64,000 bases of DNA from an uncultured Candidatus Saccharibacteria bacterium (GTDB lineage: Bacteria > Patescibacteriota > Saccharimonadia > Saccharimonadales > EFPC-124): assembly GCA_964405095.1 (NCBI GenBank), contig CAYOML010000003.1, positions 11,072 to 75,071 of the forward strand, in the 5' to 3' direction. The notes beneath the pieces are model-generated. The model did no database searches. It worked only from the letters and a program-made list of their open reading frames with translations, and was not told the origin of the DNA. Positions 1,397 through 56,315 of the stretch are shown here, piece after piece. Positions within the stretch are counted from its first letter, which is position 1. Each line of letters starts with the position of its first letter. The translations under genes were made by a program, and so were the position numbers.

Positions 1397-1552
1397 TTAA
1401 AAACTTGATTCTCAAAACCTAATACTTATGGCCGGGTCCTGCCGCCTGGTCCGCCCCTAAAGATTTTTTTATGGAAATACATAAAAAAACTTTGGGGCAG
1501 CCCCGCCAGGCGTCACCCCTTTGTTTATGGGTTTTGAGAATCAAGTTTTTAA
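1397..1552 (+). repeat. family C element, long copy (C1): ~156-nt imperfect palindrome
   Basis: Perfect 23-bp arms ttaaaaacttgattctcaaaacc / ggttttgagaatcaagtttttaa enclose a 110-nt GC-rich imperfect hairpin (CGCCTGG/CCAGGCG, CCCC..GGGG, T7/A7). Confidence 0.8.
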
Positions 1553-2908: not shown

Positions 2909-2940
2909 TCTTTGCCCATACCGCTGGTCCAACATCTTTA

Positions 2941-3058
2941 TTATCTCAGGCCGCCGCCATCGACAAAAGTCGATGCTCGGCATGCGGGAAGTATAGCCTT
3001 CGCTAACCAAGGGTGTTTAGATGCAGCTGACGTAAGTTTCATAGCACTCATTAACAAG
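2941..3058 (+). repeat. family A element, copy A1 (left arm missing)
   Basis: Core ctcaggccgccgccatcgacaaaagtcgatgctcggcatgcgggaagtatagccttcg. The right flank gctaaccaagggtgtttagatgcagctgacgtaagttt is homologous to 9388..9425. Confidence 0.85.
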
Positions 3059-3113
3059 TAGCCACGGGTAGTTAATCGGCTCGCGGGACTGGCAGACGGG
3101 TCTATCCATGTTC

Positions 3114-3121
3114 TGTAGAAT
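3114..3121 (+). promoter_or_regulatory. -10 box (tgTAGAAT) 6 nt upstream of the ATG at 3128; apparent leaderless promoter
   Basis: TAGAAT-agaacc-ATG, with no SD. Confidence 0.4.
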
Positions 3122-3127
3122 AGAACC

Positions 3128-4366
3128 ATGAGGGCAACACGTAGGTTGAAGCAAGTGGCTAAGGCGCATGTGGCAGCGGCGAGCAGCGGTTGGCCGGCAC
3201 GGCAGCTGGAGGTCGTGCTGATTGTCGGACAGGACGGCACCCAACTCAGCGTGTCGCTGTTAGGTGCCATCTTGGCAGCCAGTGGCCGACGGGCGGGCAT
3301 TATCACCCAAACCTATGTCGAGATTGCCGGTGAACGAGTCAACGGCAGTGATCAAGCCGACATCTTAAGCGACCCTTTTCGACTACAACGCTTACTAGCC
3401 CAGATGAAACACGCCGAGTGCAGCCACGTCATTATTGAGGTTCCGCCGACCATACCTGAACATAGTTTTGTTAGTCTGCACCCGGCCTTGCTGGCCATTC
3501 GCCGTTGCGGTGACAACCGGTTGGCGGGTGTCGATAACGTCCAGCGTGTCGCCCAGATCCGTCGGTTATTGGCGCTCAGCCCGCGAGCGGTGGTTTGCAA
3601 CCGTGACGACCCGGCATTTGATCAACTGAAAGATAGTTTGCGTAGCGGTTCTGGACTGATGACCTTCGGTACTCACGAGCGTGCCGAGTGCCGCATTCGC
3701 GGTGTTACGTTGCACTCAGCGGGCAGCGAGGTGAAGTTGGTTATCGATCACCATACAGAGTTGCAGCTCGGCTCATATTTAAGCGGTAAACAGGCAGTCT
3801 ACGACATGGTAACTGCCGCTGCGGCCGCCTATCTGCTGCACGTACCAATTACGGCTATCGAAGACGGCATCGCCACCTTCAAAATCCAGACTAGCCACCT
3901 GCAGCTTATCCAAACAGACCGGCCTTATCAGATGGTGATCGATGACGCGGTGACGCCCGAAGGCCTGGCCGAAAACCTCGAAACTTTGGTGCATTTTGCC
4001 AAAAACCGCGTGCTGGCAGTAATCGGCGCCAATTTGGCCCAGCCCGAGGCTTGGCGGCCGGTGATTGGCGAAGTGATCGCCGAGGCCGCTGACAGAATTG
4101 TGGTAACCGATGGTGATTATGCTGCGCATGAAAGCCCACAGCTAGTACGCCAGCATCTGCTGCAGGGAATTGTCGCGGCTGGTGCCGATGCTCGCTGCGA
4201 GGAAGTAGCCGATCGCCAGACGGCCATTGGCCGGGCGATGAGTATTGCCCGCCGAGGCGATATCGTGGCTATTCTTTGCAGCCCAAAACGGCCTTACCGC
4301 CAGCTAGGCTCGGAACGTGAGACTTGGGACGACCAGGCAGTTATTGATAGTTTGTTGCAGCAATAG
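3128..4366 (+). CDS. Mur ligase family paralog with degenerate catalytic motifs (probable pseudoenzyme)
   Basis: 412 aa and collinear with the upstream MurE. The P-loop is GQDGTQLS instead of GTNGKTT, IEVPP replaces MEATS, DDAVTPEGL replaces DYAHTPDAL, and GANLAQPEAWRP replaces GATGNRDKGKRP. Confidence 0.75.
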   Translation: MRATRRLKQVAKAHVAAASSGWPARQLEVVLIVGQDGTQLSVSLLGAILAASGRRAGIITQTYVEIAGERVNGSDQADILSDPFRLQRLLAQMKHAECSHVIIEVPPTIPEHSFVSLHPALLAIRRCGDNRLAGVDNVQRVAQIRRLLALSPRAVVCNRDDPAFDQLKDSLRSGSGLMTFGTHERAECRIRGVTLHSAGSEVKLVIDHHTELQLGSYLSGKQAVYDMVTAAAAAYLLHVPITAIEDGIATFKIQTSHLQLIQTDRPYQMVIDDAVTPEGLAENLETLVHFAKNRVLAVIGANLAQPEAWRPVIGEVIAEAADRIVVTDGDYAAHESPQLVRQHLLQGIVAAGADARCEEVADRQTAIGRAMSIARRGDIVAILCSPKRPYRQLGSERETWDDQAVIDSLLQQ

Positions 4367-4373
4367 GGTTTTG

Positions 4374-4409
4374 GCACCTCCGTGCCACTGGTGAGCAGCA
4401 CGGAGGTGC
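4374..4409. terminator. 12-bp GC hairpin between convergent genes (putative terminator, no clear U-tract)
   Basis: gcacctccgtgc-(12 nt)-gcacggaggtgc, between the murE paralog stop (4366) and the small ORF stop (4411). Confidence 0.3.
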
Positions 4410-4410
4410 A

Positions 4411-4521
4411 TCAACGCTGGTTCTTTCGGCGTCTTTGTGGCTTGATGGCGTCCCAAAATGTGGCCAGCACGGCAACTGTCATAACCACGACAATGATCGC
4501 ACCGCCCAAGAGGTCGGACAT
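4411..4521 (-). CDS. small hydrophobic peptide (36 aa), hypothetical
   Basis: MSDLLGGAIIVVVMTVAVLATFWDAIKPQRRRKNQR. A GAGGAGG Shine-Dalgarno lies 5-6 nt upstream of this internal ATG of ORF 4411..4593. One TM helix plus a basic tail. Confidence 0.4.
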   Translation of the reverse strand: MSDLLGGAIIVVVMTVAVLATFWDAIKPQRRRKNQR

Positions 4522-4598
4522 CGGCCACCTCCTCTCGACATGATCGTCCAGCGTAGTGATAACTATAAAACTATTACAGATTAAGGCAATCACTTGCG

Positions 4599-4713
4599 TC
4601 TAAACCACCCTTACCTATTACTTCTACGGCACATTCCGCGCGGGGCAGCCTTTGGCTGCTCCGGCTGCACTCGGCATCCAGACCGTAGAAGTAATAGGTA
4701 AGGGTGGTTTAGA
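4599..4713 (+). repeat. family B element, copy B1
   Basis: 31-bp perfect arms (tctaaaccacccttacctattacttctacgg / ccgtagaagtaataggtaagggtggtttaga) around a 53-nt core, cacattccgcgcggggcagcctttggctgctccggctgcactcggcatccaga. The core is near-identical to the reverse complement of 26933..26989. Confidence 0.85.
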
Positions 4714-5819: not shown

Positions 5820-6164
5820 TCAGAGCCAGGACAAGGCATACGCAGCCCACCCAGCCACATGGGCAGCCAGAATGCCGAGGCTGCTCCAGTAGAGCCACAA
5901 ATGCACGCGAGATGCATGGCCGTTTCTAAAATCAAATGGGAGTGTACAACACATCACGCCGAGGCAGAAGGTGATCGTGTAGGCCACGAGACACCCGATT
6001 GCCAGTGGCATTGAAGTGTGTAAGTTAGACGTCCCAACCATGAATATCGCCGCACCCGCAACTACAAGGAGCGAACCAATCGGCAAAGCTAGCCACCAAA
6101 AGGCTTGACGGGTCATGTTTGCCATTGACCTCGTGCCCTTGACCGCTGTGATTGTCGCCGTCAT
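5820..6164 (-). CDS. hypothetical integral membrane protein
   Basis: 114 aa with three to four hydrophobic segments. No family recognised. Confidence 0.5.
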   Translation of the reverse strand: MTATITAVKGTRSMANMTRQAFWWLALPIGSLLVVAGAAIFMVGTSNLHTSMPLAIGCLVAYTITFCLGVMCCTLPFDFRNGHASRVHLWLYWSSLGILAAHVAGWAAYALSWL

Positions 6165-6371: not shown

Positions 6372-7706
6372 GTGAACTCAGCGATTTTTAAGTCTTACGA
6401 TATCCGCGGCAGAGTCGGCACCGAACTCACTAGTCGAGTTGCTAACGAAATAGCTAGAGCTTTTGCCGATTACTTACCAGAGACTGGGGTTGTGGCTGTT
6501 GGCCGCGATATGCGTCCCGATTCCGAACAACTGGCCACAGCATTTATAGAGGGTCTGCAAGCCCAGGGCCGTGATGTCATGGACGTCGGCATGGTGACAA
6601 GCGACATGGTCTACTTTGCAGTTGGCAAATATTCCTTGGCCGGCGGGGCAGTAATCACGGCCAGCCACAATACAGGTGCCGACAACGGGATTAAGCTATA
6701 TCGCGATCATGTAACGCCGGTTGGTTTAGGCTCGGGCCTCGAACAAGTCCGGGATGCTGTAATGGCTGGTAATTTTAAAGAGGAAACAGCCGTCCCGGGT
6801 AAGGTCACGCCGCGCGATATTACCGAAGATTGGGTAACTCATTGTCTGAGCTTTGTAAAAGGCTTGCAGCCGTTCCATATTGCGATTGATGCCGGCAACG
6901 GCATGGCCGGCGCCATTTTGCCATATATCCTGCTGCGCCTGCCGCTAAAAGTACAACAGATGTACTTTGAGCCGGACGGCACTTTTCCTAACCATGAAGC
7001 TAACCCACAAAAAGTTGAAAACTTGAAAGACTTGATGGGTCAGGTCAAAGAAAACGCCTACGACTTTGGCATTGCCTTTGACGGCGACGGTGACCGAGCG
7101 GTGTTTGTCGACGACATGGGCCGGCCAGTGCTAGGCAGCGATCTTATCAGTATTGTCGCCCACTATTATCTGCAAAAATATCCCGGCAGCAGTATTGTTT
7201 ATGATGTTCGGACATCACGCTCGACCCAAGAGCTGATTAAGCAGTGGGGTGGTGTACCCGTGCGTACCAAGGCTGGCCGCACATATATTGGCGCGAAACT
7301 GCGCGAAATTGGCGCGCCGTTTGGTGGTGAAACAACCGGCCACTTATTCTTTAAGGAGAATTACGATGCCGATAGTGGCCTGATCGCCGTCCTGGTGGCA
7401 ATGCAGGCTCTCAGTGACTCTCATCGCAAGCTCAGTGAGCTGGTTGATGAATATCACAAATACGTCATGGGCCCCGAAATCAACATGGATGTTGCCGACC
7501 CACAAAGTGCCCTAATCCGTCTGCGTGAAGCTTTTACCGATGGTGAACAAGATCAACTCGATGGGCTAACCGTTAATTACGCCGACCGCTGGTTTAACGT
7601 CCGCGCCAGCAACACCGAACCGGTAATGCGTTTGAACGCCGAAGCGCGCAGCCAGGGTGATTTGGATGCCTTAATACAACGCGTCCGTCACACGATCGAG
7701 GCGTAG
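6372..7706 (+). CDS. phosphomannomutase/phosphoglucomutase (alpha-D-phosphohexomutase)
   Basis: 444 aa with a GTG start after GAGGAGG (6355..6361). KSYDIRG; active-site TASHN; metal loop FDGDGDR. Confidence 0.85.
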   Translation: MNSAIFKSYDIRGRVGTELTSRVANEIARAFADYLPETGVVAVGRDMRPDSEQLATAFIEGLQAQGRDVMDVGMVTSDMVYFAVGKYSLAGGAVITASHNTGADNGIKLYRDHVTPVGLGSGLEQVRDAVMAGNFKEETAVPGKVTPRDITEDWVTHCLSFVKGLQPFHIAIDAGNGMAGAILPYILLRLPLKVQQMYFEPDGTFPNHEANPQKVENLKDLMGQVKENAYDFGIAFDGDGDRAVFVDDMGRPVLGSDLISIVAHYYLQKYPGSSIVYDVRTSRSTQELIKQWGGVPVRTKAGRTYIGAKLREIGAPFGGETTGHLFFKENYDADSGLIAVLVAMQALSDSHRKLSELVDEYHKYVMGPEINMDVADPQSALIRLREAFTDGEQDQLDGLTVNYADRWFNVRASNTEPVMRLNAEARSQGDLDALIQRVRHTIEA

Positions 7707-7717
7707 AAAGAACCAAG

Positions 7718-9271
7718 ATGACACTACAAGACACCCTGACCTATCAACCGGTCGAACTAGCCTTTGGCACATCTGGCCTGCGAGCGTTAGTGACCGACAT
7801 GACCGATCTGGAATGCTACATCAACGGGATTGGTTTCTTGCGTTTTTTGGAATCGGCAGATGGGCTGGAACCTGGCAATATTGTGTATCTCGCCGGTGAC
7901 TTAAGGCAAAGTACGCCGCGGATTTTGGCGGCCATGCAAAAAGCGATTAGTGACGCTGGTTACCGCACGGTGTATTGTGGGCTGATTCCCACACCGGCCC
8001 TTGCCTACATTGCCTTACAAAAACACTCGCCATGCATCATGGTAACCGGCAGTCACATCCCGGAAGACCGCAACGGAATTAAATTTTACAAGCGCGCCGG
8101 TGAAGTACTGAAAGAAGACGAGCTAGGTATTAAAGAGGCTGTGGCTACTTTCCGAGAGGCTGTGTATTCGAGCGACGCCAAGGTTAGTGATTTTGGCTCA
8201 AGTGGTGATCTTTTACAACCCCCGGCCTTGCCAACCGAAGACGGCGAGGCGCTGGCTATGTATCTCAAACACTATACCGACGTATTTAATGCTAAAACTC
8301 TGGCCGGCGTCAAAGTAGTGTTTTATCAGCACTCATCGGTTGGCCGTGATTCGCTGTCTGGTCTACTACAAGACCTTGGTGCCGAGGTAATACTCACCGG
8401 CCGGTCCGATAAATTTGTACCGATCGACAGTGAAAACGTAACACCCGACGATCAAGCCTACTTTAAGGTTCTCGCTCGCCAACACCCCGATGCCTTTGCG
8501 ATTGTTTCGACCGATGGTGACAGTGACCGGCCATTTGTGGTCGACGAGCAAGGCGTCTTTCACCGCGGCGATGTGCTTGGGGCGATTAACGCCGATTGGA
8601 TGAAGGCCGATTTTGCGGCTTATCCAGTTAGCTCCAGCGATGCAGTCGACCACCATCTGAGTGATCGTAAAGTTGCTTGGCAACATACCCGGATTGGCTC
8701 GCCATATGTTATATCAGTGATGCAAGAAGCCGTGCTGGCTGGCCACGAGCGTGTGGTTGGTTGGGAGGTTAATGGCGGGCTGCTACTGGGTAGCGATATA
8801 GAAATGCGCCATCATAAAATCCTGAAGGCTCTGCCTACCCGCGATGCGATTCTGCCGATTATTGGCGCGCTAGTCATGGCTCATAGTAACAAACAATCTA
8901 TGTCCCAACTATTTGGCAGTCTGGAGCAGCGCTTTACCCAGGCCGGTTTGATTGATAATTTCTCCGGCGATGTCTATAAGTTGATTGCCGCCCGCTTTGC
9001 AGCCGATACATCGGATGTGCGCCGAGATCTGGGGCAGTACTTTAGTTCAGCCCGTGGCTTCGGCGAGATCACCCAGATTAACTCTTTGGACGGAGTACGC
9101 ATCTACTTTGATAACGGCGATATTGCTCACTTGCGCCAGTCCAACAATGCCCCCCAACTACGTATGTACAGTGTGGCTAACACGCAGGAGCGCGCCGACG
9201 CGATTGTGTCGCTGGCGATAGCCGAAGAGGGTGGAATTTTCCGCGAGTTGCAGGGGGCTGTGAGTGCGTAG
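7718..9271 (+). CDS. alpha-D-phosphohexomutase family protein (second paralog)
   Basis: 517 aa. VTGSHIPEDRNGIKF active-site loop; STDGDSDRP metal loop. Confidence 0.8.
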   Translation: MTLQDTLTYQPVELAFGTSGLRALVTDMTDLECYINGIGFLRFLESADGLEPGNIVYLAGDLRQSTPRILAAMQKAISDAGYRTVYCGLIPTPALAYIALQKHSPCIMVTGSHIPEDRNGIKFYKRAGEVLKEDELGIKEAVATFREAVYSSDAKVSDFGSSGDLLQPPALPTEDGEALAMYLKHYTDVFNAKTLAGVKVVFYQHSSVGRDSLSGLLQDLGAEVILTGRSDKFVPIDSENVTPDDQAYFKVLARQHPDAFAIVSTDGDSDRPFVVDEQGVFHRGDVLGAINADWMKADFAAYPVSSSDAVDHHLSDRKVAWQHTRIGSPYVISVMQEAVLAGHERVVGWEVNGGLLLGSDIEMRHHKILKALPTRDAILPIIGALVMAHSNKQSMSQLFGSLEQRFTQAGLIDNFSGDVYKLIAARFAADTSDVRRDLGQYFSSARGFGEITQINSLDGVRIYFDNGDIAHLRQSNNAPQLRMYSVANTQERADAIVSLAIAEEGGIFRELQGAVSA

Positions 9272-9306
9272 ATCTATAGACCTGAATACTCTCTATTTCC
9301 CCCACC

Positions 9307-9443
9307 CTGCAATTAAGCACCCTTAGTTATCTCAGGCGGCCAACATCGACAAAAGTCGATGCTTGGCATGCGGGAAGCATAGCCTTTGCTAACTAAGGGT
9401 GTTTAATTGCAGCTGACGTAAGTTTGTGGCACTCGTTGCCAAG
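9307..9443 (+). repeat. family A element, copy A2 (complete)
   Basis: 23-nt arms ctgcaattaagcacccttagtta / taactaagggtgtttaattgcag (one G-T pair) enclose a 60-nt core. The right flank is shared with A1. Confidence 0.85.
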
Positions 9444-9495
9444 CGACCTAAACTCAGCTTCATTTGCAAACGGGTACTTCCTAAATACAGCGCTA

Positions 9496-9594
9496 GCCGC
9501 GAGTGGCGCGAAGGAAGGGGTGCCCCAGTCGCGCGCAGCCAGTACCCTGGCGAGCACGTCTGGGGAAGGAAGCCTAAGCGACGAGGCTCGCGGT
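9496..9594 (+). repeat. family D element, copy D1
   Basis: Closing stem GCCGCGAG/CTCGCGGT. Internal pairings CCCCAG/CTGGGG and GCCAG-tacc-CTGGC. Blocks ggggtgcccc..gcgcgcagcc..ggcgagca..ggggaaggaa..ctaagcgacgagg are shared with 42002..42143. Confidence 0.8.
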
Positions 9595-9689
9595 ATGGCA
9601 GACTAGAGGGTGTGCTGCTGTATGTACTGCCGCAGGCAGTTCATGGGCTCGCGGGGTTGCAAGGGGGAGCGAAATTCAGAGCAAATGAA

Positions 9690-9716
9690 TTAGCACTCTT
9701 GCATTGACAGTGCTAA
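9690..9716 (+). promoter_or_regulatory. CIRCE operator (HrcA binding site) of the groES-groEL operon
   Basis: TTAGCACTC-ttgcattga-CAGTGCTAA, against the consensus TTAGCACTC-N9-GAGTGCTAA. It overlaps the groES promoter. Confidence 0.85.
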
Positions 9717-9728
9717 TTTCGTTATAGT
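9699..9728 (+). promoter_or_regulatory. groES promoter candidate (TTGCAT-18 nt-TATAGT)
   Basis: -35-like TTGCAT 9699..9704; -10 TATAGT 9723..9728; AGGAGG SD at 9757..9762. Confidence 0.5.
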
Positions 9729-9770
9729 AAAAATACTTACAGAAGAACTGCTAACCAGGAGGTTATAAGA

Positions 9771-10040
9771 ATGAGCGTAAGCATCAAACCGCTTGCCGAC
9801 CGCATTGTGGCTGTCCGCGAGGAAGCCGAAACCAAGACCGCTTCTGGGCTCTACCTGCCCGACGCCGCCAAAGAAAAACCAGTTGTCGCCAAAGTTGTGG
9901 CCGTTGGTAAAGACGTCAAAGAAGTAAAAATAGGGGACCGCGTAGTTTACCGCGAATATGCGCCAACCGAACTCAAGACCGGTGGTCAAGAATATTTGAT
10001 TCTAAAAGAAGAAGACGTCCTGGCGACGCTCGCAAAATAG
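9771..10040 (+). CDS. groES: co-chaperonin GroES
   Basis: 89 aa. IKPLADRIV..ASGLYLPD..GKV.AVG, the typical Cpn10 pattern, directly upstream of groEL. Confidence 0.95.
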   Translation: MSVSIKPLADRIVAVREEAETKTASGLYLPDAAKEKPVVAKVVAVGKDVKEVKIGDRVVYREYAPTELKTGGQEYLILKEEDVLATLAK

Positions 10041-10052
10041 GAGGATTTTTAA

Positions 10053-11699
10053 ATGGCTAAAAAAGTTTTTTACGATGACGATGCCCGCCGCCGAGTGCTT
10101 GGCGGAGCAAAGACGTTATACGACGCTGTAAAAGTTACAATGGGTCCTAAAGGCCGAAACGTAATTATTAGTAAAACCTACGGTGGCCCGACCGTTACCC
10201 ACGATGGTGTAACTGTAGCTAAGGGTATCGAACTGCCCGAAGAAGACAACGAAGAACTAGGTTTTAAAGTTGGCGCCGAGCTTATCAAGCAAGCTGCCAA
10301 CAAAATGAACGACGTAGCCGGTGACGGTACGACCACTGTTACTGTGCTAACTTACACCATTTTGGCCGAAGCCAATCGCCTAATTGCTGCTGGCCACAAC
10401 CCAATGGAACTGCGCAAAGGTGTCGAAGCCGCTGGCACCGAAGTGCTGGCTAAACTGGCTAGCATGGCCGAGCAAATCGGTAGCAAGAAAGAACGCGTGG
10501 CCGAAGTCGCCACGATTAGCGCTGGTGACGCGGAAATTGGCAAATTAATAGCCGATGTGATCAGCAAGATCGGCAAAGACGGCGTTGTAACCGTTGAAGA
10601 GGGCCAAGGTCTGCACCTTGAGGCCGAAGTTGTCGAAGGCTTTACCATGGATCGCGGCTTTGTGAGCCCCTACATGGTAACCGACGCCGCACGCATGGAA
10701 GCTGTTTACGACAAGCCGGCCATCGTAATTACCGACGAAAAGATCAGCAGTGTGCAACAATTCTTGCCACTACTCGAAAAACTCGCTCAAGCTGGCAAAA
10801 AAGATCTAATCTTGGTTGCCGAAGATGTTGAAGGCGAAGTCATGGCTACATTAATCCTTAACAAACTTAAGGGTGTGTTTAACACAGTGGCCGTTAAGGC
10901 CCCTGCCTTCGGCGACCGTCGCAAAGACATGCTTCAGGACTTGGCGGTTTTGACTGGCGCCCAAGTTATTAGTAAAGACCAAGGCGTAACCTTTGAAGAC
11001 GCCGAGCTAAGTATGGTAGGTAGTGCCCGCAAGGTAATTGTTGGTAAAGACAACACTACTATCATTGAAGGTGCGGGTTCGGCTGCCGACGTGACCGCGC
11101 GAATTAAGCAAATCAAAGCCCAGGCCGAAGCCGCTAGTAGCGAGTATGATAAAGAAAACTACGAAAAACGGGCTGCAGCCTTAAGTGGTAAGGTTGCCGT
11201 CATTAAAGTCGGTGGCGCCACCGAAACCGAGATCGAAGAAAAGAAATTCCGTGTCGACGACGCTGTGGCTGCCACCAAAGCTGCTCTGGCCGAGGGTGTG
11301 GTAGCTGGTGGTGGTGTGACATTTGTTGATCTCAGCAAAACACTCAAAGTTACCGGTAACGACAGCGCAGCCGCTGGCCATCAGTTGCTTAAAAACGCTC
11401 TATTGCAGCCTTTCCGACAGTTGATGAGCAATGCTGGTATGAACGCCGACGAAAAGTTGCCACAAGTGGTTGCCAGTAGCAAACCAGGCTACGGCTTCGA
11501 CGTCAACAACGCCGACAAGCTGATCGACCTTAAAGTGGCAGGTATTGTTGACCCGGCGCGGGTAGCCAAAGAAGCTATCCAAAATGCCGTCAGTATTGCC
11601 GCTACAGCCATGACCATGGGTGCCCTGGTGGTTGATATTCCCAAAGAAGAATCAGCTCCAGGCGGTGGCGGTGGCATGCCTGGTATGGGCATGATGTAA
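10053..11699 (+). CDS. groEL: chaperonin GroEL
   Basis: 548 aa. AGDGTTTVTVL motif and a GGM-type C-terminal tail (GGGGGMPGMGMM). Confidence 0.97.
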   Translation: MAKKVFYDDDARRRVLGGAKTLYDAVKVTMGPKGRNVIISKTYGGPTVTHDGVTVAKGIELPEEDNEELGFKVGAELIKQAANKMNDVAGDGTTTVTVLTYTILAEANRLIAAGHNPMELRKGVEAAGTEVLAKLASMAEQIGSKKERVAEVATISAGDAEIGKLIADVISKIGKDGVVTVEEGQGLHLEAEVVEGFTMDRGFVSPYMVTDAARMEAVYDKPAIVITDEKISSVQQFLPLLEKLAQAGKKDLILVAEDVEGEVMATLILNKLKGVFNTVAVKAPAFGDRRKDMLQDLAVLTGAQVISKDQGVTFEDAELSMVGSARKVIVGKDNTTIIEGAGSAADVTARIKQIKAQAEAASSEYDKENYEKRAAALSGKVAVIKVGGATETEIEEKKFRVDDAVAATKAALAEGVVAGGGVTFVDLSKTLKVTGNDSAAAGHQLLKNALLQPFRQLMSNAGMNADEKLPQVVASSKPGYGFDVNNADKLIDLKVAGIVDPARVAKEAIQNAVSIAATAMTMGALVVDIPKEESAPGGGGGMPGMGMM

Positions 11700-11707
11700 T
11701 CCTGGCC

Positions 11708-11753
11708 AGCACAATATTAAAAGACCTCGCACGAGGTCTTTTAATATTGTGCT
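11708..11753 (+). terminator. intrinsic terminator-like hairpin after groEL
   Basis: ~21-bp inverted repeat agcacaatattaaaagacctcg / cgaggtcttttaatattgtgct, followed by tatt. Confidence 0.6.
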
Positions 11754-18142: not shown

Positions 18143-19060
18143 CTAGTTTCTTACGCCATGCCTGCCAAGTTTACGCAACCAGACTTCTTGTTGAGCTGTT
18201 TGCCCCTTCTCGGCGATAAGATTATCCATATACTCAACAAATGGTGCGGCGACAAGGTTCGGATTTGCGTACCTCAAGCCATCGCTACTTAACCCCCGTA
18301 CACTGTCGGCGTCAAACACACAATGCAGTCTCTTTTCGTTGTGGCGGTCATTCTTTAGTAGATACACATAGCCGTCAATCTGAGCAGCGGCATAATCCTC
18401 ATCGCTTATTCTGCCACTCCGCCAAAGATCGCCTATGGCGTGCGCATATGCTGCGTGTGCTTTTACGTCTATGCCCAGACTCAGTCCAGACTCTTCGTGG
18501 GTAATAGTAATATCGGTGCCGTCTAGGTCTCCAAGAACGCCGCTGCGTCCGGCTACATAGTCTTCGGGTAGAGCGGCATTCAGAGCTTGTTCAACGGCAA
18601 ACTCGCGGCTGACACCGTCGACGATGCTGTCGTAGTCGGGTCGGCTGAACATACTGCTGGCACCGAGCACACGCTCTGCAGTTGCGAAAAAAGTGCCTCG
18701 AAAGCTAACTAAAGCACTGGCTGGTAGTGCCTCAAAGCAATCAACGAGGCTACCGTGGAACTGAATCATTCTGGCTGCTAACCCGCGGTTAGTTGGAGAG
18801 CCTGGCCTAGAGCTCTTTTGTTTGTTTATTTCTAGCTGGGTTCTGGCTGCTGCTGGCACGCTTAATATGGCCGCGGCAATAGCTGCGGCCGGTGTGTCTG
18901 CTCGCCCTCGATAGTCCCCAGATGCCCGCAACTGGCTTTCTATTGGATGCGTCACCATCGCCGCCGCGGTTTGCCAAACCTGCCGAACTACTCCCTCCTG
19001 CTCAGCGCGCCGCGAGACTGTGGGTGGGCGATTGAAGGTGGTGGGCTGTTGGTCGAGCAT
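18143..19060 (-). CDS. hypothetical protein with PD-(D/E)xK nuclease-like signature (paralog of 16969..18009)
   Basis: 305 aa. GTDITIT..(8)..LGIDVKA preceded by SREFAVE. Collinear blocks IQF, LP and G.(I/L)(S/T).E(E/D) are shared with the neighbour. Confidence 0.55.
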   Translation of the reverse strand: MLDQQPTTFNRPPTVSRRAEQEGVVRQVWQTAAAMVTHPIESQLRASGDYRGRADTPAAAIAAAILSVPAAARTQLEINKQKSSRPGSPTNRGLAARMIQFHGSLVDCFEALPASALVSFRGTFFATAERVLGASSMFSRPDYDSIVDGVSREFAVEQALNAALPEDYVAGRSGVLGDLDGTDITITHEESGLSLGIDVKAHAAYAHAIGDLWRSGRISDEDYAAAQIDGYVYLLKNDRHNEKRLHCVFDADSVRGLSSDGLRYANPNLVAAPFVEYMDNLIAEKGQTAQQEVWLRKLGRHGVRN

Positions 19061-21320: not shown

Positions 21321-21410
<90 letters not shown>

Positions 21411-26897: not shown

Positions 26898-27024
26898 TTG
26901 ACTGAACCACCCCCAGCTTATTACCGCAACGGTCTGGATGCCGAGTGCAGCCGGAGCAGCCCATCAAGGGCTGCCCCGTGCGGAATGTGCCGTTGAAGTA
27001 ATAAGCTGGGGGTGGTTCAGTCAA
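26898..27024 (-). repeat. family B element, copy B2 (inverted relative to B1)
   Basis: 35-bp arms (ttgactgaaccacccccagcttattaccgcaacgg / ccgttgaagtaataagctgggggtggttcagtcaa, two non-Watson-Crick positions). The 57-nt core is the reverse complement of the B1 core, apart from one substitution and a longer hairpin tip. Confidence 0.85.
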
Positions 27025-40884: not shown

Positions 40885-40906
40885 CCAAGTACCACCCCGA
40901 ATGCAC

Positions 40907-40912
40907 TATACT
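40907..40912 (+). promoter_or_regulatory. -10 box (TATACT) 6 nt upstream of the polA ATG at 40919
   Basis: TATACT-tatacc-ATG. The ORF-track start at 40901 lies upstream of and partly within the promoter. Confidence 0.45.
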
Positions 40913-40918
40913 TATACC

Positions 40919-43618
40919 ATGAGCAAACGCCTGGTTATTATAGATGGCAAAAGCGTATTTTACCGTGGCTACTATGCTATGCCCAGTTTAAGTACCAAAG
41001 ACGGCACACCCACTGGCGGGGTTTATGGTTTTGCAGTCATGGCACTAGAAGTAGTGAAGAAGTTAAAGCCGGATTATGTTTGCGTGGCGTGGGACAAACG
41101 CCACACCAATATTCGCTCCCGCGTGGCGTTATATCCTCAGTACAAAGCCAATCGCAAGCCGGCACCGCCAGATTTTTATGAGCAAATCCCGATTTTGTAC
41201 GACTTGTTGCATGCCTTAGGTTGGCCACTTTACGAAGCCGACGACTACGAAGCCGACGACCTAATGGGTGCCTTTGCCAAGCAAGCCGGCGAAAAGGACA
41301 TAGAAAGTTACCTTGTAACTAGCGACCTAGACGTTTTACAGCTCGTAAACCCACATACCCACATTTACACCCTTAAAAAAGGCCTCAGCCACATAGAACT
41401 ATTCAATGTGGCTAGCTTTGAAGAAAAATACGGCGTCAGTGCTCACCAATGGGTGGATGTTAAAGCGCTGAAAGGTGATTCGTCCGACAATATTCCAGGC
41501 GTAGCCGGCGTCGGCGAAAAAACCGCTTTGGAGCTCATAAAACAATATGGTTCGCTCGACGGAGTTTACGAAAACATCGAACTTATTAAAAACACTCTCA
41601 AAGATAAACTCGTCAAAGATAAAGACATGGCCTACCTAAGTAAAAAACTTGTCACCCTGATGGTAGACGCACCCATAAAAATTGACCTCGCACACGCCAA
41701 ACTCCACGACGGTGTCACCCCTGAATTTGTGGCCATATTACGCAAACTCGAATTCCGTAACCTTCTTCGCCAGGCCGAAGCCGGCATGACCAAATCCGAA
41801 CTAGAAGCCGCTGAAGAACACATCGAAGAGCACGAAATGCCCGAAATCAAAAAGAAAAAATTCGACCAAGCCGACTACAAACCCACCCAAACCCGCGTAA
41901 TAGCCCTCAGCCCCGACAGCAGTACACTATGGGTCAGCCCAATTCAAGGCTACTATAGTATATTGCCGTTAACTGAGAGCACTGGTTCTACGTCAGCCGG
42001 GGGTGACCCGGAGGGAGGGGCGCCCCGGTCACGCGCAGCCGTACTCGGCGAGCATGTCCGGGGAGGGAAACCTGAGGGGCAGGACCCGCGGGGTGGTCTG
42101 CACAACAATGAAGGCGGTCTAAGCGACGAGGCACGTGGTCACCTTGAAACGGTAATGAACGGTCCTCTCATCGGCCACGACCTCAAAAGTATCTTCAGAT
42201 ATCTGCTCGGCCTTGGCGTAAAAACCGAACCCAAAGTCGAACACGACACCCGCATCGCCGCCTTCATCCTAAATTCATTGGAACGCTCCCGCGAACTCGG
42301 CGACCTCCGCGGCCGTACCCTCGACATGGCCAACCCCGCTGAAGTTCTCCCATCCACCTGGGAAGCTTACAAAGACCAAAAACTCCAATTCGATCAACTC
42401 CCCAAACTTCAAATGCTTGCCACCGACATGGACTTCCCCAGCATCTACCTTCTCGCCAAAATGGAGCACCGCGGTATTCGCCTCGACAGCACATATCTTA
42501 ACAACATGGGCAAAAAATTCGAGGTCCAATTAAAAGAATTTGAACAAAAAATTTACGAACTGGCTGGGCAAGAATTTAACATTGCCTCGCCAACCCAGCT
42601 TGGTGAAATCTTGTACGTAAAACTCGGCTTGCCAACCGGCGGCGTCAAAAAAGGCAAAACCGGCTATTCTACTGGCGCCAAAGAGTTAGAGAAATTAAAG
42701 CCGTTGCATCCACTGCCAGCGCTGGTTTTGCAGTACCGCGAATACGCTAAACTCAAAAGCACCTACATCGACACCCTCCCAAAACTTGTCGATGCCCAAG
42801 GCAAATTGCATACCACCTACGATCTGGACGTTGCCGCAACTGGCCGTCTCAGCAGTCGCGACCCTAACCTGCAAAACATCCCTACCCGTACCGAAATTGG
42901 TCAAGCCATCCGCACAGCCTTTCTGCCGGGTCCAGGTAACGTGTTTGTAAGCGCTGACTACAACCAGTTTGAGTTGCGTCTTTCGGCCGTGATGGCCGAG
43001 GATAAAGAGCTAATCGAAAGCTTTAACAAACACGAAGACGTCCACACCAAAACTGCCGCCCAGTTATATGGCATTCCTACCGCCACTGTCACTAAAGAAC
43101 AGCGCCGTCATGCCAAAACCGTCAATTTTGGGATTTTGTATGGCATGAGCCCACATGGCTTGCAAGCCGCGACCGGCATGAGTTTTGCCGAAGCGCGGGA
43201 TTTTATCAAAAAGTATTTTGAGCTGCGAGCGCCGATCCGCGACTACATCGACAATATAGTTAAAAAAGCCCTACACGACGGCTATGTAGAAACCATCTTT
43301 GGCCGTCGTCGTCCAACCCCAGACTTAAAAAGCAGCAACTTCGCCGTCCGCGAAGCCGCCAAACGCGCCGCCATGAACATGCCAATCCAGGGAACCGAAG
43401 CCGATATTATGAAGTTGGCAATGCTGGCGGTGGAAGAAAAGTTGAGTGGGCTAGGCGAGCAGCTGCTGCAAATCCACGACAGCATTTTAGTAGAATGCCC
43501 CGAGGCAAACGCCGAAAAAGTCAGCAAAATCTTAAAAGAAACCATGGAATCTATCCACCCTCTGCCGGTCGAGCTAAAAGTCGACGTCAGCACTGGAAAA
43601 AACTGGGGTGCACTCTAG
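40919..43618 (+). CDS. polA: DNA polymerase I
   Basis: ~899 aa. 5' nuclease (LVIIDGKSVFYRGYYA, SDNIPGVAGVGEKTA); pol motifs DYNQFELRL (A), RRHAKTVNFGILYG (B) and QIHDSILVE (C). Contains the family D repeat at 42002..42143 in-frame. Confidence 0.95.
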   Translation: MSKRLVIIDGKSVFYRGYYAMPSLSTKDGTPTGGVYGFAVMALEVVKKLKPDYVCVAWDKRHTNIRSRVALYPQYKANRKPAPPDFYEQIPILYDLLHALGWPLYEADDYEADDLMGAFAKQAGEKDIESYLVTSDLDVLQLVNPHTHIYTLKKGLSHIELFNVASFEEKYGVSAHQWVDVKALKGDSSDNIPGVAGVGEKTALELIKQYGSLDGVYENIELIKNTLKDKLVKDKDMAYLSKKLVTLMVDAPIKIDLAHAKLHDGVTPEFVAILRKLEFRNLLRQAEAGMTKSELEAAEEHIEEHEMPEIKKKKFDQADYKPTQTRVIALSPDSSTLWVSPIQGYYSILPLTESTGSTSAGGDPEGGAPRSRAAVLGEHVRGGKPEGQDPRGGLHNNEGGLSDEARGHLETVMNGPLIGHDLKSIFRYLLGLGVKTEPKVEHDTRIAAFILNSLERSRELGDLRGRTLDMANPAEVLPSTWEAYKDQKLQFDQLPKLQMLATDMDFPSIYLLAKMEHRGIRLDSTYLNNMGKKFEVQLKEFEQKIYELAGQEFNIASPTQLGEILYVKLGLPTGGVKKGKTGYSTGAKELEKLKPLHPLPALVLQYREYAKLKSTYIDTLPKLVDAQGKLHTTYDLDVAATGRLSSRDPNLQNIPTRTEIGQAIRTAFLPGPGNVFVSADYNQFELRLSAVMAEDKELIESFNKHEDVHTKTAAQLYGIPTATVTKEQRRHAKTVNFGILYGMSPHGLQAATGMSFAEARDFIKKYFELRAPIRDYIDNIVKKALHDGYVETIFGRRRPTPDLKSSNFAVREAAKRAAMNMPIQGTEADIMKLAMLAVEEKLSGLGEQLLQIHDSILVECPEANAEKVSKILKETMESIHPLPVELKVDVSTGKNWGAL
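42002..42143 (+). repeat. family D element, copy D2, inside the polA reading frame
   Basis: Closing stem GGTGACC/GGTCACC. CCCCGG/CCGGGG and GCCG-tact-CGGC. The core is homologous to 9496..9594, with an extra ~47-nt insert. Confidence 0.8.
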
Positions 43619-50096: not shown

Positions 50097-50972
50097 ATGC
50101 CCGAACTACCCGAGGTTGAAACAATTCGTAGTGGCCTGGCGAAGCTTTTGCCTGGCCGAGTTGTTATAAGCGAGACTCACGATTGGCCCAAGGGCTTCCC
50201 AAACTCACCCGAGGATGTGAAGCATTTTTTGATTGGTTCTGAAGTCCTGAGAGTGCGTCGCAGGGCGAAAGTACTCGTTGTCGATCTGTCCAGCCTGTAT
50301 AGTTTAGTTGTTCATTTAAAGATGACTGGGCAGTTGGTGTTCCATGGTGGTGAGGTTCGCTTTGGTGCTGGGCACCCCAGCGATAGTCTAATTGGCGACT
50401 TACCCGACAAGTCAACGCGCGTTACTTTAACCTTTAAAGACGATGGCCGATTATTTTTTAACGACCAACGTAAGTTTGGGTGGATGCGGCTTCTGCCTAC
50501 AGCCGAGGTCGAAGAACTGGATTTCTTTAAAAAAGTTGGCCCCGAACCACTGGCTGCCGATTTTACCGCCGAAGACTTTGCCACACGTCTGAAGCGGCGC
50601 GCAAAATCTGGTATCAAAGCAGTTTTGATTGACCAAACTATAGTCGCAGGTGTTGGCAACATTTACGCCGACGAAAGTCTGTGGGCGGCCAAAATCCACC
50701 CCGAACTGCGGGTACAAGATATCTCGAGTGCGAAAATGAACGTACTTTATCAGGAACTACGCAGGATCCTGCAGCTTGCTATCAAAAAAGGCGGTTCAAC
50801 AGATAGAAATTACGTCAACCACGAAGGTAAAAAGGGCAGCTACTTAACCTTTGCGAATGTCTTTAGACGTGAGGGCCGGCCCTGTCCGCGTTGTGGCACA
50901 ACAATAATCAAGTTGCGCGTTGCTGGCCGCGGTACACACATTTGCCCGTATTGCCAAAAGGTAAAATCATGA
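50097..50972 (+). CDS. mutM: formamidopyrimidine-DNA glycosylase
   Basis: 291 aa. N-terminal MPELPEVE and the C-terminal zinc finger CPRCG..CPYCQ. Confidence 0.93.
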
Positions 50973-51403
50973 AAATTAGAGTAATCAACAAATCTAAACA
51001 CCCGTTGCCGAACCATGAAACGTCTTATGCTGCAGCCATAGATATTAGGGCCGATCTAGATCAGCCTATCAAGCTAAAACCAATGCAGCGTGCACTTATC
51101 CCAACTGGTCTTTATGTGGCGTTGCCCCAGGGTTATGAAGCGCAAATTAGGCCGCGTAGCGGACTGGCGCTTAAACATGGTATTAGCATAGTTAATGCTC
51201 CAGGCACAATCGACGCCGACTACCGCGGCGAGTGGGGGATACTGCTAATTAACCTCGGTGCCGAAGATTTTGTAGTTAACGACGGCGATCGCATTGCCCA
51301 AGCGGTTATCGCCAAACACGAAACTGTGCAGTGGCAGGAAGTAGAAGATCTAGATGAGACGGATCGCAAAGGCGGCGGTTTTGGCAGCACCGGCAGCAAC
51401 TAA
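50969..51403 (+). CDS. dut: dUTP diphosphatase
   Basis: 144 aa from MKIRVINKS, with an ATGA overlap with the fpg stop. AAIDIRA; [10 protein letters not shown]; RKGGFGSTG. Confidence 0.92.
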
Positions 51404-51420
51404 CTGCTAAAATAAAACTA

Positions 51421-52751: not shown

Positions 52752-52828
52752 AAAAACTCTCGTTAATTGATCTTTAATTCAAGTGGTGACTATAGCTGAT
52801 TTAGTTAGATCTGTAAAGAGGTGTGAAA

Positions 52829-52934
52829 CCGAAACGAGACATAAGCGATTGTCTCAGGCCGCCGACATCGACAAAAGTCGATGCTCGGCATGCGGGAAGC
52901 ATAGCCTTCGTCAATCACTTATGTCTCGTTTCGG
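52829..52934 (+). repeat. family A element, copy A3 (complete)
   Basis: 23-nt arms ccgaaacgagacataagcgattg / caatcacttatgtctcgtttcgg (one C-A mismatch) enclose a 60-nt core that is near-identical to A1 and A2. Confidence 0.85.
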
Positions 52935-53071
52935 CTGGCGCAAACACTATGCCAGTATGGAGAACTCTAGTACCAAACTGTTAGAATTGTGGATAACTTT
53001 CTTGCAGAGGTTAACTGCTTATGCTACAGTAAACCCAAAGTCTACTAAAAAACAAAAAGGCTAAAAACACC

Positions 53072-55092: not shown

Positions 55093-55767
55093 ATGCAAAA
55101 TCCCTCTGGCTTGGTATTAATCGACAAACCCTCTGGTATATCTAGTTTTGGCGTGGTTGCTCGTGTGCGTCGTCAACTCAGTCAGGTTGCCGGTAAGAAA
55201 GTCAAAGTCGGCCACACTGGCACGCTTGACCCATTTGCTACTGGCCTGATGATTATTGTGGTTGGTGATTACTGCAAACGTGCTGGCGAGTTCAGTAAGC
55301 TAGATAAAACCTACGAAGCCACAATGCACCTAGGCCAAACCAGTAGCACTGGTGACCCTGAGGGTACAATAACAGATGTATCGAGTCGCCAGCCGAGCCG
55401 CGACGAGTTAGGCAAGGCATTAAGAAAATTCCACGGTGTTATACAACAAACACCACCAGTCTACAGCGCTATAAAAATCGGCGGACAGCGAGCCTACAAG
55501 TTGGCCCGCGCCGGCAAATATGTTGAAATGCCAACCCGGACAGTTACTGTTTCGCGCCTTGAACTGTTAGATTATACTTATCCAGATATAAAGATCGTTT
55601 GTGATGTATCGAGTGGTACCTACATTCGCACATTAGTCGAAGATATTGGTCAAAAACTAGGCACTGGCGCCTATACAACCACTCTACGCCGTACCACAAT
55701 TGGCAAGTGGCGCATTCAAGAAGCTATAACTCTCGAAGACCAGCACTACACACTGATAAACCCATGA
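55093..55767 (+). CDS. truB: tRNA pseudouridine(55) synthase
   Basis: 224 aa. GLVLIDKPSGISS; catalytic GHTGTLDP. Confidence 0.93.
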   Translation: MQNPSGLVLIDKPSGISSFGVVARVRRQLSQVAGKKVKVGHTGTLDPFATGLMIIVVGDYCKRAGEFSKLDKTYEATMHLGQTSSTGDPEGTITDVSSRQPSRDELGKALRKFHGVIQQTPPVYSAIKIGGQRAYKLARAGKYVEMPTRTVTVSRLELLDYTYPDIKIVCDVSSGTYIRTLVEDIGQKLGTGAYTTTLRRTTIGKWRIQEAITLEDQHYTLINP

Positions 55768-56315
55768 CTAATTCTAATCCTCGATCTGGCGAAAGCCGCG
55801 AACACGTACCTGCAATGCAGACATCTGTTGCAACTTTGCACACCAACGCTCAGCATCTAATCGACGCACTAGGCCCATCGGAGCCATGGCCAACTGATGG
55901 CCCGCATGATAGGCGTTTTGACTTCTCGCCGCGAGCTATAGCGGCCGCAGGTTTTGAACCGTACGACAAATTATGGCTTACAGATGTGATGCCGTTTGAA
56001 GACCCAGATGACGATGCAAGTCTGATAGGTGCGCGGGTTACCGTGTGGCTCGACAGTGATGATGGGGAATCACACTATACACGCGATACATCTTTGGTAC
56101 AGGGCGCTGACGGAGCCATAAAGGCTGATAAACCAGATGAGCGTGCTGTGCCTTCCGACCCAACCCAAAGAGCCCTTACAGATCCAACACTGGATCTACT
56201 GAACGCTATTTTGGGTACTGAGGGTACCCGTGGGCCTACTTTCTTCAGCCAAGCCGAATGCGATAAATGGTTACGCCTTATTCAGGTCGAGCTTGAGCTG
56301 CAAGGAATGGCCTGA
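55764..56315 (+). CDS. hypothetical protein
   Basis: 183 aa from MTNSNPRS, with an ATGA overlap with the truB stop. Asp-rich; no family recognised. Confidence 0.45.
   Translation: MTNSNPRSGESREHVPAMQTSVATLHTNAQHLIDALGPSEPWPTDGPHDRRFDFSPRAIAAAGFEPYDKLWLTDVMPFEDPDDDASLIGARVTVWLDSDDGESHYTRDTSLVQGADGAIKADKPDERAVPSDPTQRALTDPTLDLLNAILGTEGTRGPTFFSQAECDKWLRLIQVELELQGMA

Follow-up and report, generated by a model that had tools for sequence, protein, structure and literature searches.

What lengthens the spacer ahead of the chaperonin operon groESL in a streamlined bacterial genome? The spacer in question (positions 9272-9770) separates a phosphohexomutase gene of the PGM family from groES in a 64-kb stretch of contig CAYOML010000003.1, hereafter the window, from an uncultured member of the Saccharimonadales (Saccharibacteria/TM7, candidate phyla radiation (CPR)) whose genome has a GC content of 50%. 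An earlier reading of the letters alone (the sequence-only reading) had judged this spacer far longer than the others, and at 499 nt it is indeed the longest in the window, because two apparently larger gaps turned out to be genes (a dUTPase gene at 50969-51420 and an open reading frame (ORF) at 55764-56315). The next longest spacers measure 342 nt (4367-4708) and 320 nt (52752-53071); hairpin elements lie in both, and every long spacer of the window carries an element of this kind. We found that the extra length consists of repeated hairpin modules, as had been proposed: a family A element, a family D element and a decayed remnant of D. Our main new point is that family D is, by nucleotide alignment, the same ~100-nt GC-rich hairpin that is inserted in the inter-domain linker of polA, the gene for DNA polymerase I. 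We favor, with a probability of roughly 0.55, the view that A and D are small non-autonomous palindromic repeats collecting in permissive spacers, akin to MITEs (miniature transposable elements that carry inverted repeats), repetitive extragenic palindromic (REP) sequences or Rickettsia palindromic elements (RPEs).

Hairpin modules between the PGM-family gene and groES

The first module of the spacer belongs to family A, whose three copies emerged from a direct-repeat search (2936-3039, 9322-9425 and 52844-52947; 76-89% identical). The spacer copy, A2 (9307-9412, plus strand; 120.7 bits), is a 106-nt hairpin with a 23-bp outer stem that includes one G-U pair. Its folding energy is -69 kcal/mol (z = -8.3), a stability that none of 200 shuffled sequences equals. 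A3 (52829-52934, plus strand; 121 bits) has an A2-like core within an unrelated 23-bp outer stem with one C/A mismatch and folds at -68.6 kcal/mol (z -9.9; no shuffle as stable). The core is a three-way junction, CTCAGGC..CATCGAC-AAAA-GTCGATG..ATGC-GGGAA-GCAT..GCCTT, whose two hairpins (CAUCGAC-AAAA-GUCGAUG and AUGC-GGGAA-GCAU) are present in A2 and A3 alike. Across the ~60 nt of this core A2 and A3 are more than 90% identical; their arms are unrelated, each pair being complementary save at one position.

The remaining copy, A1 (2924-3026, plus strand; 86 bits), belongs to the A2 subfamily. Its 5' arm is decayed by insertions and deletions, the long stem is lost and the fold is unremarkable (z -0.85). 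Local alignment of 2909-3128 with the spacer showed that similarity between A1 and A2 spans 9292 to 9443, taking in the arms, 15 nt of 5' flank (9292-9306, plus strand; TCTATTTCCCCCACC) and ~30 nt of 3' tail (9413-9443, plus strand; CTGACGTAAGTTT..GGCACTCGTTGCCAAG), of which A3 has CTGRCGYAA only. The complete family A element that had been read at 9307-9443 therefore corresponds to A2 at 9307-9412 together with shared flanks (9292-9443). A covariance model of family A, run over 690 kb of sequence in which 68 metagenomic loci of relatives are counted, returned these three copies, at 86-121 bits, and nothing else. A degenerate pattern for the A core had 0 matches in collections of genome, metagenome and viral contigs, and neither in the window nor in the examined loci does a second copy of the hairpin arms, or a target complementary to them, occur. 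As far as we have seen, family A is specific to the lineage of the window.

The second module, D1 (9492-9606, plus strand), is an irregular hairpin of ~107 nt with 69% GC that scores 109 bits (9492-9598) with a covariance model, R1, built from five copies; a family D element had been predicted here at 9496-9594. Its translation in the frame of ORF 9424-9606 is AASGAKEGVPQSRAASTLASTSGEGSLSDEARG. Downstream lies a decayed D remnant (9624-9670, plus strand) that has lost its centre and kept the outer stem region, with a second GGCTCGCGG. The CTGCC-GCA-GGCAG hairpin, earlier placed at about 9627-9639, lies exactly there, inside the remnant; the covariance model aligns P1 only, at 3.5 bits, which is not significant alone. 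Another D remnant follows A1 (3058-3101, plus strand; ..GGCTCGCGGGACTGGCAGACGGGT). This stretch aligns to 9585-9611 and 9624-9655 with a score reached in 0 of 500 shuffles (the spacer remnant matching 3058-3087), and here too the model fits the outer stem alone. The alignment bears out the proposal that A followed by a D tail recurs at 2941-3100. The further suggestion that the modules travel together holds in part: the order A then D occurs at two loci, at one of which both parts are decayed, but each module also occurs alone, D without A in polA (in the window and on related contigs L075, L076 and L079) and on contigs L071 and L078, and A without D at 52829-52934, where no D follows A3.

The ~115 nt of filler (9272-9291, 9444-9491 and 9671-9689) are unique and match nothing anywhere. 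The ~380 nt ahead of the groESL control region are, in our reading, lineage-specific DNA composed of A2, D1, the D remnant and this filler. ORFs 9424-9606, 9426-9707 and 9393-9557 (minus strand) gave no Pfam match; the first two, which the sequence-only reading took for mere translations of the repeats, should not be called by annotators. A search of plasmid and phage collections with 9285-9690 returned no match. Rfam 15 at gathering thresholds found a single match in the whole window, a tRNA at 21321-21407, and at E up to 10 it gave only noise on the spacer, the polA copy and L078, the best scores in the spacer being 11-16 bits against thresholds of 37-86. A simple promoter and terminator scan of 9150-9850 called no site, whether promoter or intrinsic terminator (a GC-rich stem-loop plus U tract); A2 is followed by CTGACGTAAG.

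The sequence-only reading had proposed comparing the same spacer in sister genomes. In five relatives with PGM and groES directly adjacent (L018-L021 and L068), the spacer is 134-184 nt long and lacks the modules, with the CIRCE operator in the same place, so that the window spacer is longer by roughly 330 nt. Among the relatives found, the closest is P0002 (PGM 81% identical; JGI sample 3300041967, 66,775 nt); it has a PGM-groES spacer of 416 nt, and the PolA encoded on its contig (P0122) is without the extra D insert; P0003 (80%) and P0008 show no PGM-groES synteny. In L080, a further relative of 22 kb with an 80% identical polA and a largely shared gene order, A, D and long hairpins are all absent. 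The rpsT spacer of L080 (19871-20312) aligns with that of the window (52752-53071) in the promoter-bearing flanks at both ends. Between these flanks L080 has an ORF for a predicted membrane protein of 79 aa, lying between rpsT and a gene of 668 aa, in place of A3 and the ~70 nt that accompany it in the window.

The groESL control region itself, the last ~80-120 nt of the spacer, is ordinary and conserved: CIRCE (controlling inverted repeat of chaperone expression) over a promoter, then a Shine-Dalgarno sequence. At 9690-9716 on the plus strand, where the sequence-only reading had located it, we found the HrcA-type inverted repeat TTAGCACTC-TTGCATTGA-CAGTGCTAA, which fits the consensus TTAGCACTC-N9-GAGTGCTAA with one mismatch and is its sole match in 64 kb (0.01 expected by chance). 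It begins 81 nt before the groES ATG; CIRCE lies at -60 to -81 before groES in L012, L014, L029 and L031, and takes variant forms in L018, L020 and L068. For the final 175 nt ahead of groES we made an alignment that includes seven relatives, all of which keep CIRCE. In this alignment a -35-like hexamer (TTGACA, TTGACG or TTGCAA) falls inside the right half of CIRCE and a -10-like hexamer (TACAAT, CATATT or TATAGT) 8-12 nt past it, with a gap of 17-18 nt in the relatives. Since the simple scan calls no canonical promoter, we infer the groESL promoter from this conservation: it would occupy 9699-9728 on the plus strand (-35 TTGCAT at 9699-9704 or TTGACA at 9704-9709; -10 TATAGT at 9723-9728), with transcription probably starting near 9735. 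The sequence-only reading had placed operator and promoter after the repeats, which agrees with this position; the -35 hexamer lies within the operator and the -10 hexamer just past it. The Shine-Dalgarno sequence AGGAGG (9757-9762, plus strand) stands 8 nt ahead of the ATG.

With the promoter inside or just after CIRCE, A2 and D1 lie at least 90 nt upstream of it and outside the heat-shock leader, and probably sit in the tail of the PGM transcription unit. The idea of a heat-shock leader colonised by hairpin modules is thus right in that repeats fill the spacer, but they stand upstream of the promoter rather than in the leader. In its inverted repeat, promoter overlap and conservation in relatives the operator resembles the CIRCE/HrcA operators of groESL and dnaK operons generally; nothing about it is unusual, it is independent of the repeat modules, and the understanding of groESL is unchanged.

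Family D in polA and in other genomes

D1 aligns with positions 41992-42140 of the window, within polA (ORF 40901-43618). The copy there, D2 (41992-42096, plus strand; 95.6 bits), stands in frame in the linker between the 5'-3' exonuclease and 3'-5'-exonuclease-like domains and is followed by a native segment encoding GEGGLSDEARG. Three related contigs (L075, L076 and L079) likewise carry D in the polA linker. The sequence-only reading had seen in D a mobile hairpin module; D is indeed an intergenic repeat, but that description is too simple for a sequence that is also a polA linker insert. Altogether, BLAST and the covariance models identified seven copies of D in six contigs (47-109 bits), and in ~690 kb of relatives no A or D besides the copies listed here. 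At the nucleotide level D1 is about 90% identical to the L079 linker, 83% to that of L075, 77% to the window's own polA copy and 73% to that of L076, and it is closer to each other copy than those copies are to one another. The polA genes of the window and L075 are 67% identical overall, with the linker their least conserved part; the similarity of L075 to D1 runs a few bases beyond the hairpin (GGTATxGC).

The polA copies of D are read in different frames after small indels, indicating that the nucleotide sequence is conserved and not the peptide. Relative to D1, L075 and L079, the window polA copy (41992-42145) has a 2-nt frame-shifting deletion, and further on a segment of ~46 nt that looks like a diverged duplicate of the part coding for GEGGLSDEARG restores the frame. 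To judge from these alignments, the linker evidently tolerates frame-shifted translation.

Orthologous PolA proteins fall into three length classes. Short ones (842-850 aa) have a linker of ~30 aa and are without an entire segment of ~30 aa; the common class (874-878 aa) has a linker of ~60 aa reading ..LPLLKDxSVVAYGEGGMSDEAR..; and the long class (895-899 aa) includes the window protein and P0121, which have an extra 22-31 residues just before GEGGLSDEARG. P0122 (874 aa, 85% identical to the window PolA) lacks those residues, and the length of P0166 (895 aa) is owed to a separate insertion of 20 aa. Both P0166 and P0173 carry ..AASGAxGGxxQSRAAxASTSGEGxLSDEARG.. at the position of D, and the D1 peptide is 81% identical to P0173 residues 365-388 (over 26 residues). 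The polA of L080 has a common-type linker with no D signal at the nucleotide level. The exact window PolA is absent from the protein collection, where its best match is 87% identical. Searching with the D1 peptide, a word-indexed search gave no candidate and no match at E <= 0.001 was found among 1.84 billion representatives, a null that says little because the query, 41 residues of low complexity, is too short. For annotators, inserts of 20-30 residues that vary in frame are to be expected in Saccharimonadales PolA.

Two further copies of D lie between genes. That of L071 (47.5 bits) stands between convergent genes, 5 nt past the stop codon of a FemAB-like gene. The copy on L078 (858-1015, minus strand; 68.5 bits) is enclosed by a perfect AT-rich stem of 18 bp and lies between divergent genes, upstream of one that is rarA-like, in a metagenome-assembled genome (MAG) labelled Candidatus Aminicenantes; if that binning is correct, D crosses phyla. 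A D pattern scan of genome contigs had two matches, the L078 element and a chance coding match (L077), and the same scan of viral contigs had 0. The L071 copy (2381-2475, opposite strand) is also just downstream of a Mur ligase orthologue, and the same Mur ligase-downstream site in the window (2909-3127) holds A1 and its D remnant, which may be a shared hot spot or a coincidence.

The D consensus folds as one long irregular hairpin. Pairing holds in 89% of the alignment cells, compared with 32-42% once the partners are shifted by 1-3 columns. Both sides have changed in 10 of 29 pairs, and not one of 500 shuffles attains these pairing and covariation values. We regard the apparent compensatory changes as supportive, not decisive, given a model-fitted alignment of six rows. 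Two internal-loop strands, CGCGCAGC and GCGAGCAYGUC, are near invariant across six or seven copies. With nine G-U cells against six A-C cells, and similar sense and antisense folds, the hairpin would fit either strand, and RNA or DNA alike.

Palindromic repeats and the competing explanations

Several observations argue for palindromic repeats: the elements are repeated; decayed copies (the A1 arm and the D remnants) are tolerated, as expected of non-essential repeats; they are absent from equivalent sites in relatives; they occupy the long spacers; contigs assembled from short reads break at them; and D stands in frame in a tolerant linker. The elements would spread by some copying or recombination process, by whatever enzyme, and persist where insertion is harmless, that is, in the few long spacers and, for D, in the polA linker, where D would be translated in whichever frame it falls. 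Within the groES spacer, their one possible influence on groESL would be to end or insulate the PGM transcript. On this view a streamlined CPR genome of ~1 Mb would still hold several palindromic repeat families, filling nearly all of its long spacers.

The closest likeness of D is to RPEs. RPEs insert in frame in ORFs, and the pneumococcal repeats BOX, RUP and SPRITE cluster and nest in spacers (PMC10969869). Like RPEs, D is a hairpin repeat of ~100 nt found both intergenically (9492-9598, L071, L078) and in the open frame of a housekeeping gene (polA in the window, L075, L076 and L079), whose translation makes it a surface or linker peptide, in several related genomes (RPE properties from PMC10969869). 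Unlike RPEs, D is hosted by Saccharimonadales/CPR rather than Rickettsia, has no Rfam, plasmid or phage match and has polA as the one host gene seen, against 44 insertions in unrelated genes reported for R. conorii; nor, with its polA copies read in different frames, does it encode a conserved element-borne peptide. Its 3' half corresponds to a native polA motif, so that D may have arisen in polA or entered it. The comparison with RPEs is one of properties. Translation of D within the essential DNA polymerase I in several lineages parallels RPEs in an unrelated reduced-genome group and offers a handle on how elements spread without visible transposases.

MITEs and clustered repeats (Correia/NEMIS, ERIC, BOX, RUP and SPRITE) resemble A and D as short hairpin repeats near gene ends and piled in spacers (PMC10969869). 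In A and in a further family of the window, B, by contrast, the centre is conserved and the long arms vary yet stay paired, and we found no parent insertion sequence or transposase. The defining marks of a MITE are terminal inverted repeats that its family shares and a duplicated target site. The arms of A2 and A3 are unrelated, as are those of two core-sharing hairpins on L048, and four of the seven D copies have no long terminal repeats. No target duplication was seen for A or B. CTAG stands on both sides of D1 (9493-9496 and 9603-9606), and the L071 copy is bordered by CTAG too (2471-2468 / 2385-2382). IS630-type elements use CTAG/TA as target, so these pairs could be a duplicated target; equally, CTAG being self-complementary, they may just extend the end of the stem. 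REP sequences, BIMEs and REPINs are likewise GC-rich extragenic palindromes at gene ends, perhaps acting as single-stranded DNA hairpins. REPs measure 20-40 nt, share a GTAG-type head and number from tens to hundreds of copies, whereas the elements here are 100-155 nt long (A and D 100-110 nt) and reach at most three copies per 64 kb; A and D have no such head. Insertion directed to single-stranded loops, as by REP-associated tyrosine transposases (RAYTs; IS200/IS605-like HUH enzymes), would explain cores within unrelated stems.

Several findings weigh against palindromic repeats. The few window proteins that we screened offered no transposase, RAYT, reverse transcriptase or integrase that could be connected with the elements. 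A2 and A3 have no common terminal inverted repeat, their arms being unrelated yet near-perfectly paired, and with the pattern scans for A empty, its spread beyond the present genome is unshown. The relatives lacking the elements are only 58-81% identical at the protein level and provide no clean pair of filled and empty sites. Because GEGxLSDEAR is native to most Saccharimonadales PolA proteins and the 3' half of D encodes the motif GEG(G/S)LSDEARG, D could stem from polA rather than invade it. All seven D copies are sense to local transcription, which fits a role at the RNA level too, and the conservation of the A core (>90%) and the position of D1 nearest the family consensus may mean selection for function.

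These last points lead to the rival that survives best, although we consider it unlikely: that A, D or both are functional structured RNAs, D a cis- or independently acting hairpin and A a small RNA whose head, a three-way junction, is carried on a long stem, so that the stack ahead of groES would be RNA genes or elements in the 3' untranslated region of the PGM operon. The compensatory changes and near-invariant loop strands of D, its shared sense orientation, the copy in the Aminicenantes-labelled MAG, the central place of D1 among the copies and an A core conserved while differing arms stay paired would all suit such RNAs. Against them, Rfam offered no family at E values as high as 10, A2 and D1 are not flanked by sites that resemble promoters or terminators, and close relatives do without the elements at the same sites. 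The G-U cells of D show no clear excess over A-C cells, so that a DNA palindrome fits equally; decayed copies are tolerated; and perfect stems of 23-35 bp are more typical of recent templated copying than of lasting selection on an RNA.

The perfect, site-specific arms suggest either that a core inserted into the loop of an existing hairpin or that the arms arose by templated copying, which might proceed, for example, through palindrome correction by template switching. A conserved core with such arms is not what standard MITE models predict. There is some small chance of an undescribed class, covering A, B (4599-4713 and 26898-27024), the hairpin at 1397-1552, and those of L048 and L078, in which a conserved GC-rich core inserts or is copied into a hairpin loop to give nested, onion-like palindromes, with D entering polA repeatedly and crossing phyla; or D may be a functional RNA or DNA hairpin found from Saccharimonadales to an Aminicenantes-labelled genome. 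An origin of the outer arms as pre-existing terminators may be possible, though the idea was dropped; the window has just two simple long palindromes.

Capture of a polA fragment is a somewhat poorer explanation still. D1 would be a piece of ~110 nt of polA linker taken up by illegitimate recombination or DNA uptake, and A an unrelated local repeat. The likeness of the D1 peptide to P0173 (81%) and to P0166, the native status of GEGxLSDEAR in most polA orthologues and the few bases of L075 similarity past the hairpin all speak for it. Yet the intergenic copies of L071 (47.5 bits) and L078 (68.5 bits) have no polA flanks, the window has D remnants at two other sites, and in the window and P0121 D stands upstream of, and in addition to, the native GEGGLSDEARG. 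Moreover, D1 still has an apical hairpin, which is gone from L075 and L079, and is without the 2-nt deletion and partial duplication of the window polA, indicating that it is not a copy of any polA seen.

A part in groESL regulation, as an extended leader, a thermosensing RNA or upstream sites modulating the CIRCE/HrcA promoter, is very improbable. The modules do border CIRCE on its upstream side, and hairpins of such stability could in principle sense temperature. But the promoter hexamers (9699-9728) in and after CIRCE leave A2 and D1 outside the groESL transcript, barring read-through; relatives manage with spacers of 134-184 nt free of modules; the same modules stand beside unrelated genes (Mur ligases, rpsT and polA); and structures this stable (-54 to -69 kcal/mol) would stay folded at physiological temperatures. 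Finally, the single composite non-coding RNA gene of about 350 nt (9300-9690) raised by the sequence-only reading is hardly credible despite the highly structured region and the recurrence of A then D-type sequence at two loci, since A occurs without D at 52829-52934 and D without A in polA, L071 and L078, the A1 locus has both parts decayed, the ~115 nt between and after the modules are unique and unconserved, no Rfam match, promoter or terminator was found, and the composite is absent in relatives.

Other known hairpin classes were tried and rejected. The stretch GGGGAAGGAAGC had suggested signal recognition particle (SRP) RNA, but there is no Rfam SRP match and the apical loop is wrong. Ribozymes of the hepatitis delta virus (HDV)-like or twister type gave no model match. 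Integron attC sites have the conserved and variable parts reversed and a GTTRRRY that is missing here, and a retron non-coding RNA would have a reverse transcriptase nearby, where there is none.

Further hairpins and neighboring genes

The two family B hairpins (4599-4713 and 26898-27024, in opposite orientations) have arms of 31 and 35 nt, 100% and 94% complementary, around a conserved GC-rich core of ~55 nt. Each abuts the stop codon of the gene to which it is sense. The arms of the two copies have diverged by substitutions and indels, with matching changes in the partner arm. At the place of a B hairpin in the window, relative L004 lacks a spacer altogether. In a distant member of the Saccharimonadales (L048), hairpins at 7734-7836 and 18940-19040 have a common core of ~47 nt, with one compensatory change in the apical stem, inside wholly unrelated perfect outer stems of 27-28 bp. 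The L048 core and family B have the motif AGTGCARCCRGA in common, which makes homology plausible.

At 1397-1552 (minus strand), 15 nt upstream of the tsaD start, lies a 156-nt hairpin with perfect AT-rich arms of 23 bp. Its GC-rich inner part resembles the base of D (GGGGTGACGC..GGGGCTGCCCC ... GGCGGCAGGACCCGG) and its centre is an AT-rich palindrome, giving a nested, onion-like structure that scores 10 bits with the D model (E 0.15 in 1.7 kb). Two Logan contigs from the same organism (SRR9179563), L001 and L074, the latter with 4.2 kb of additional sequence, end at window positions ~4718 and ~1460, that is, at the edge of a family B hairpin and in the middle of this one, which fits repeats breaking assembly.

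The gene upstream of the spacer (7718-9271, plus strand; stop ending at 9271) encodes a PGM/PMM-family protein of 517 aa with Pfam domains PGM_PMM_I-III. Its best named homologues, in Candidatus Saccharimonadales MAGs, are called phosphomannomutase, and identical records exist in NCBI and in the Logan assembly of SRR9179563. Downstream, groES (9771-10040, plus strand; Pfam Cpn10, E 7e-25) is followed in the ORF list by groEL (10053-11699, plus strand). Rfam found no SRP RNA, RNase P RNA, tmRNA or 6S RNA in the 64-kb window; the one tRNA (55 bits) has a long variable arm.

At 11708-11753, 9 nt past the groEL stop, is a perfect 22-bp palindrome with a 2-nt loop and no T tract, terminator-like though unusually long, and a 12-bp palindrome follows the Mur ligase gene (4374-4409). 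On L033, another relative, three long hairpins at 3656-3721, 5948-6109 and 7704-7828 have perfect arms of 16-20 nt with 26-126 nt between them and cores unrelated to A, B or D.

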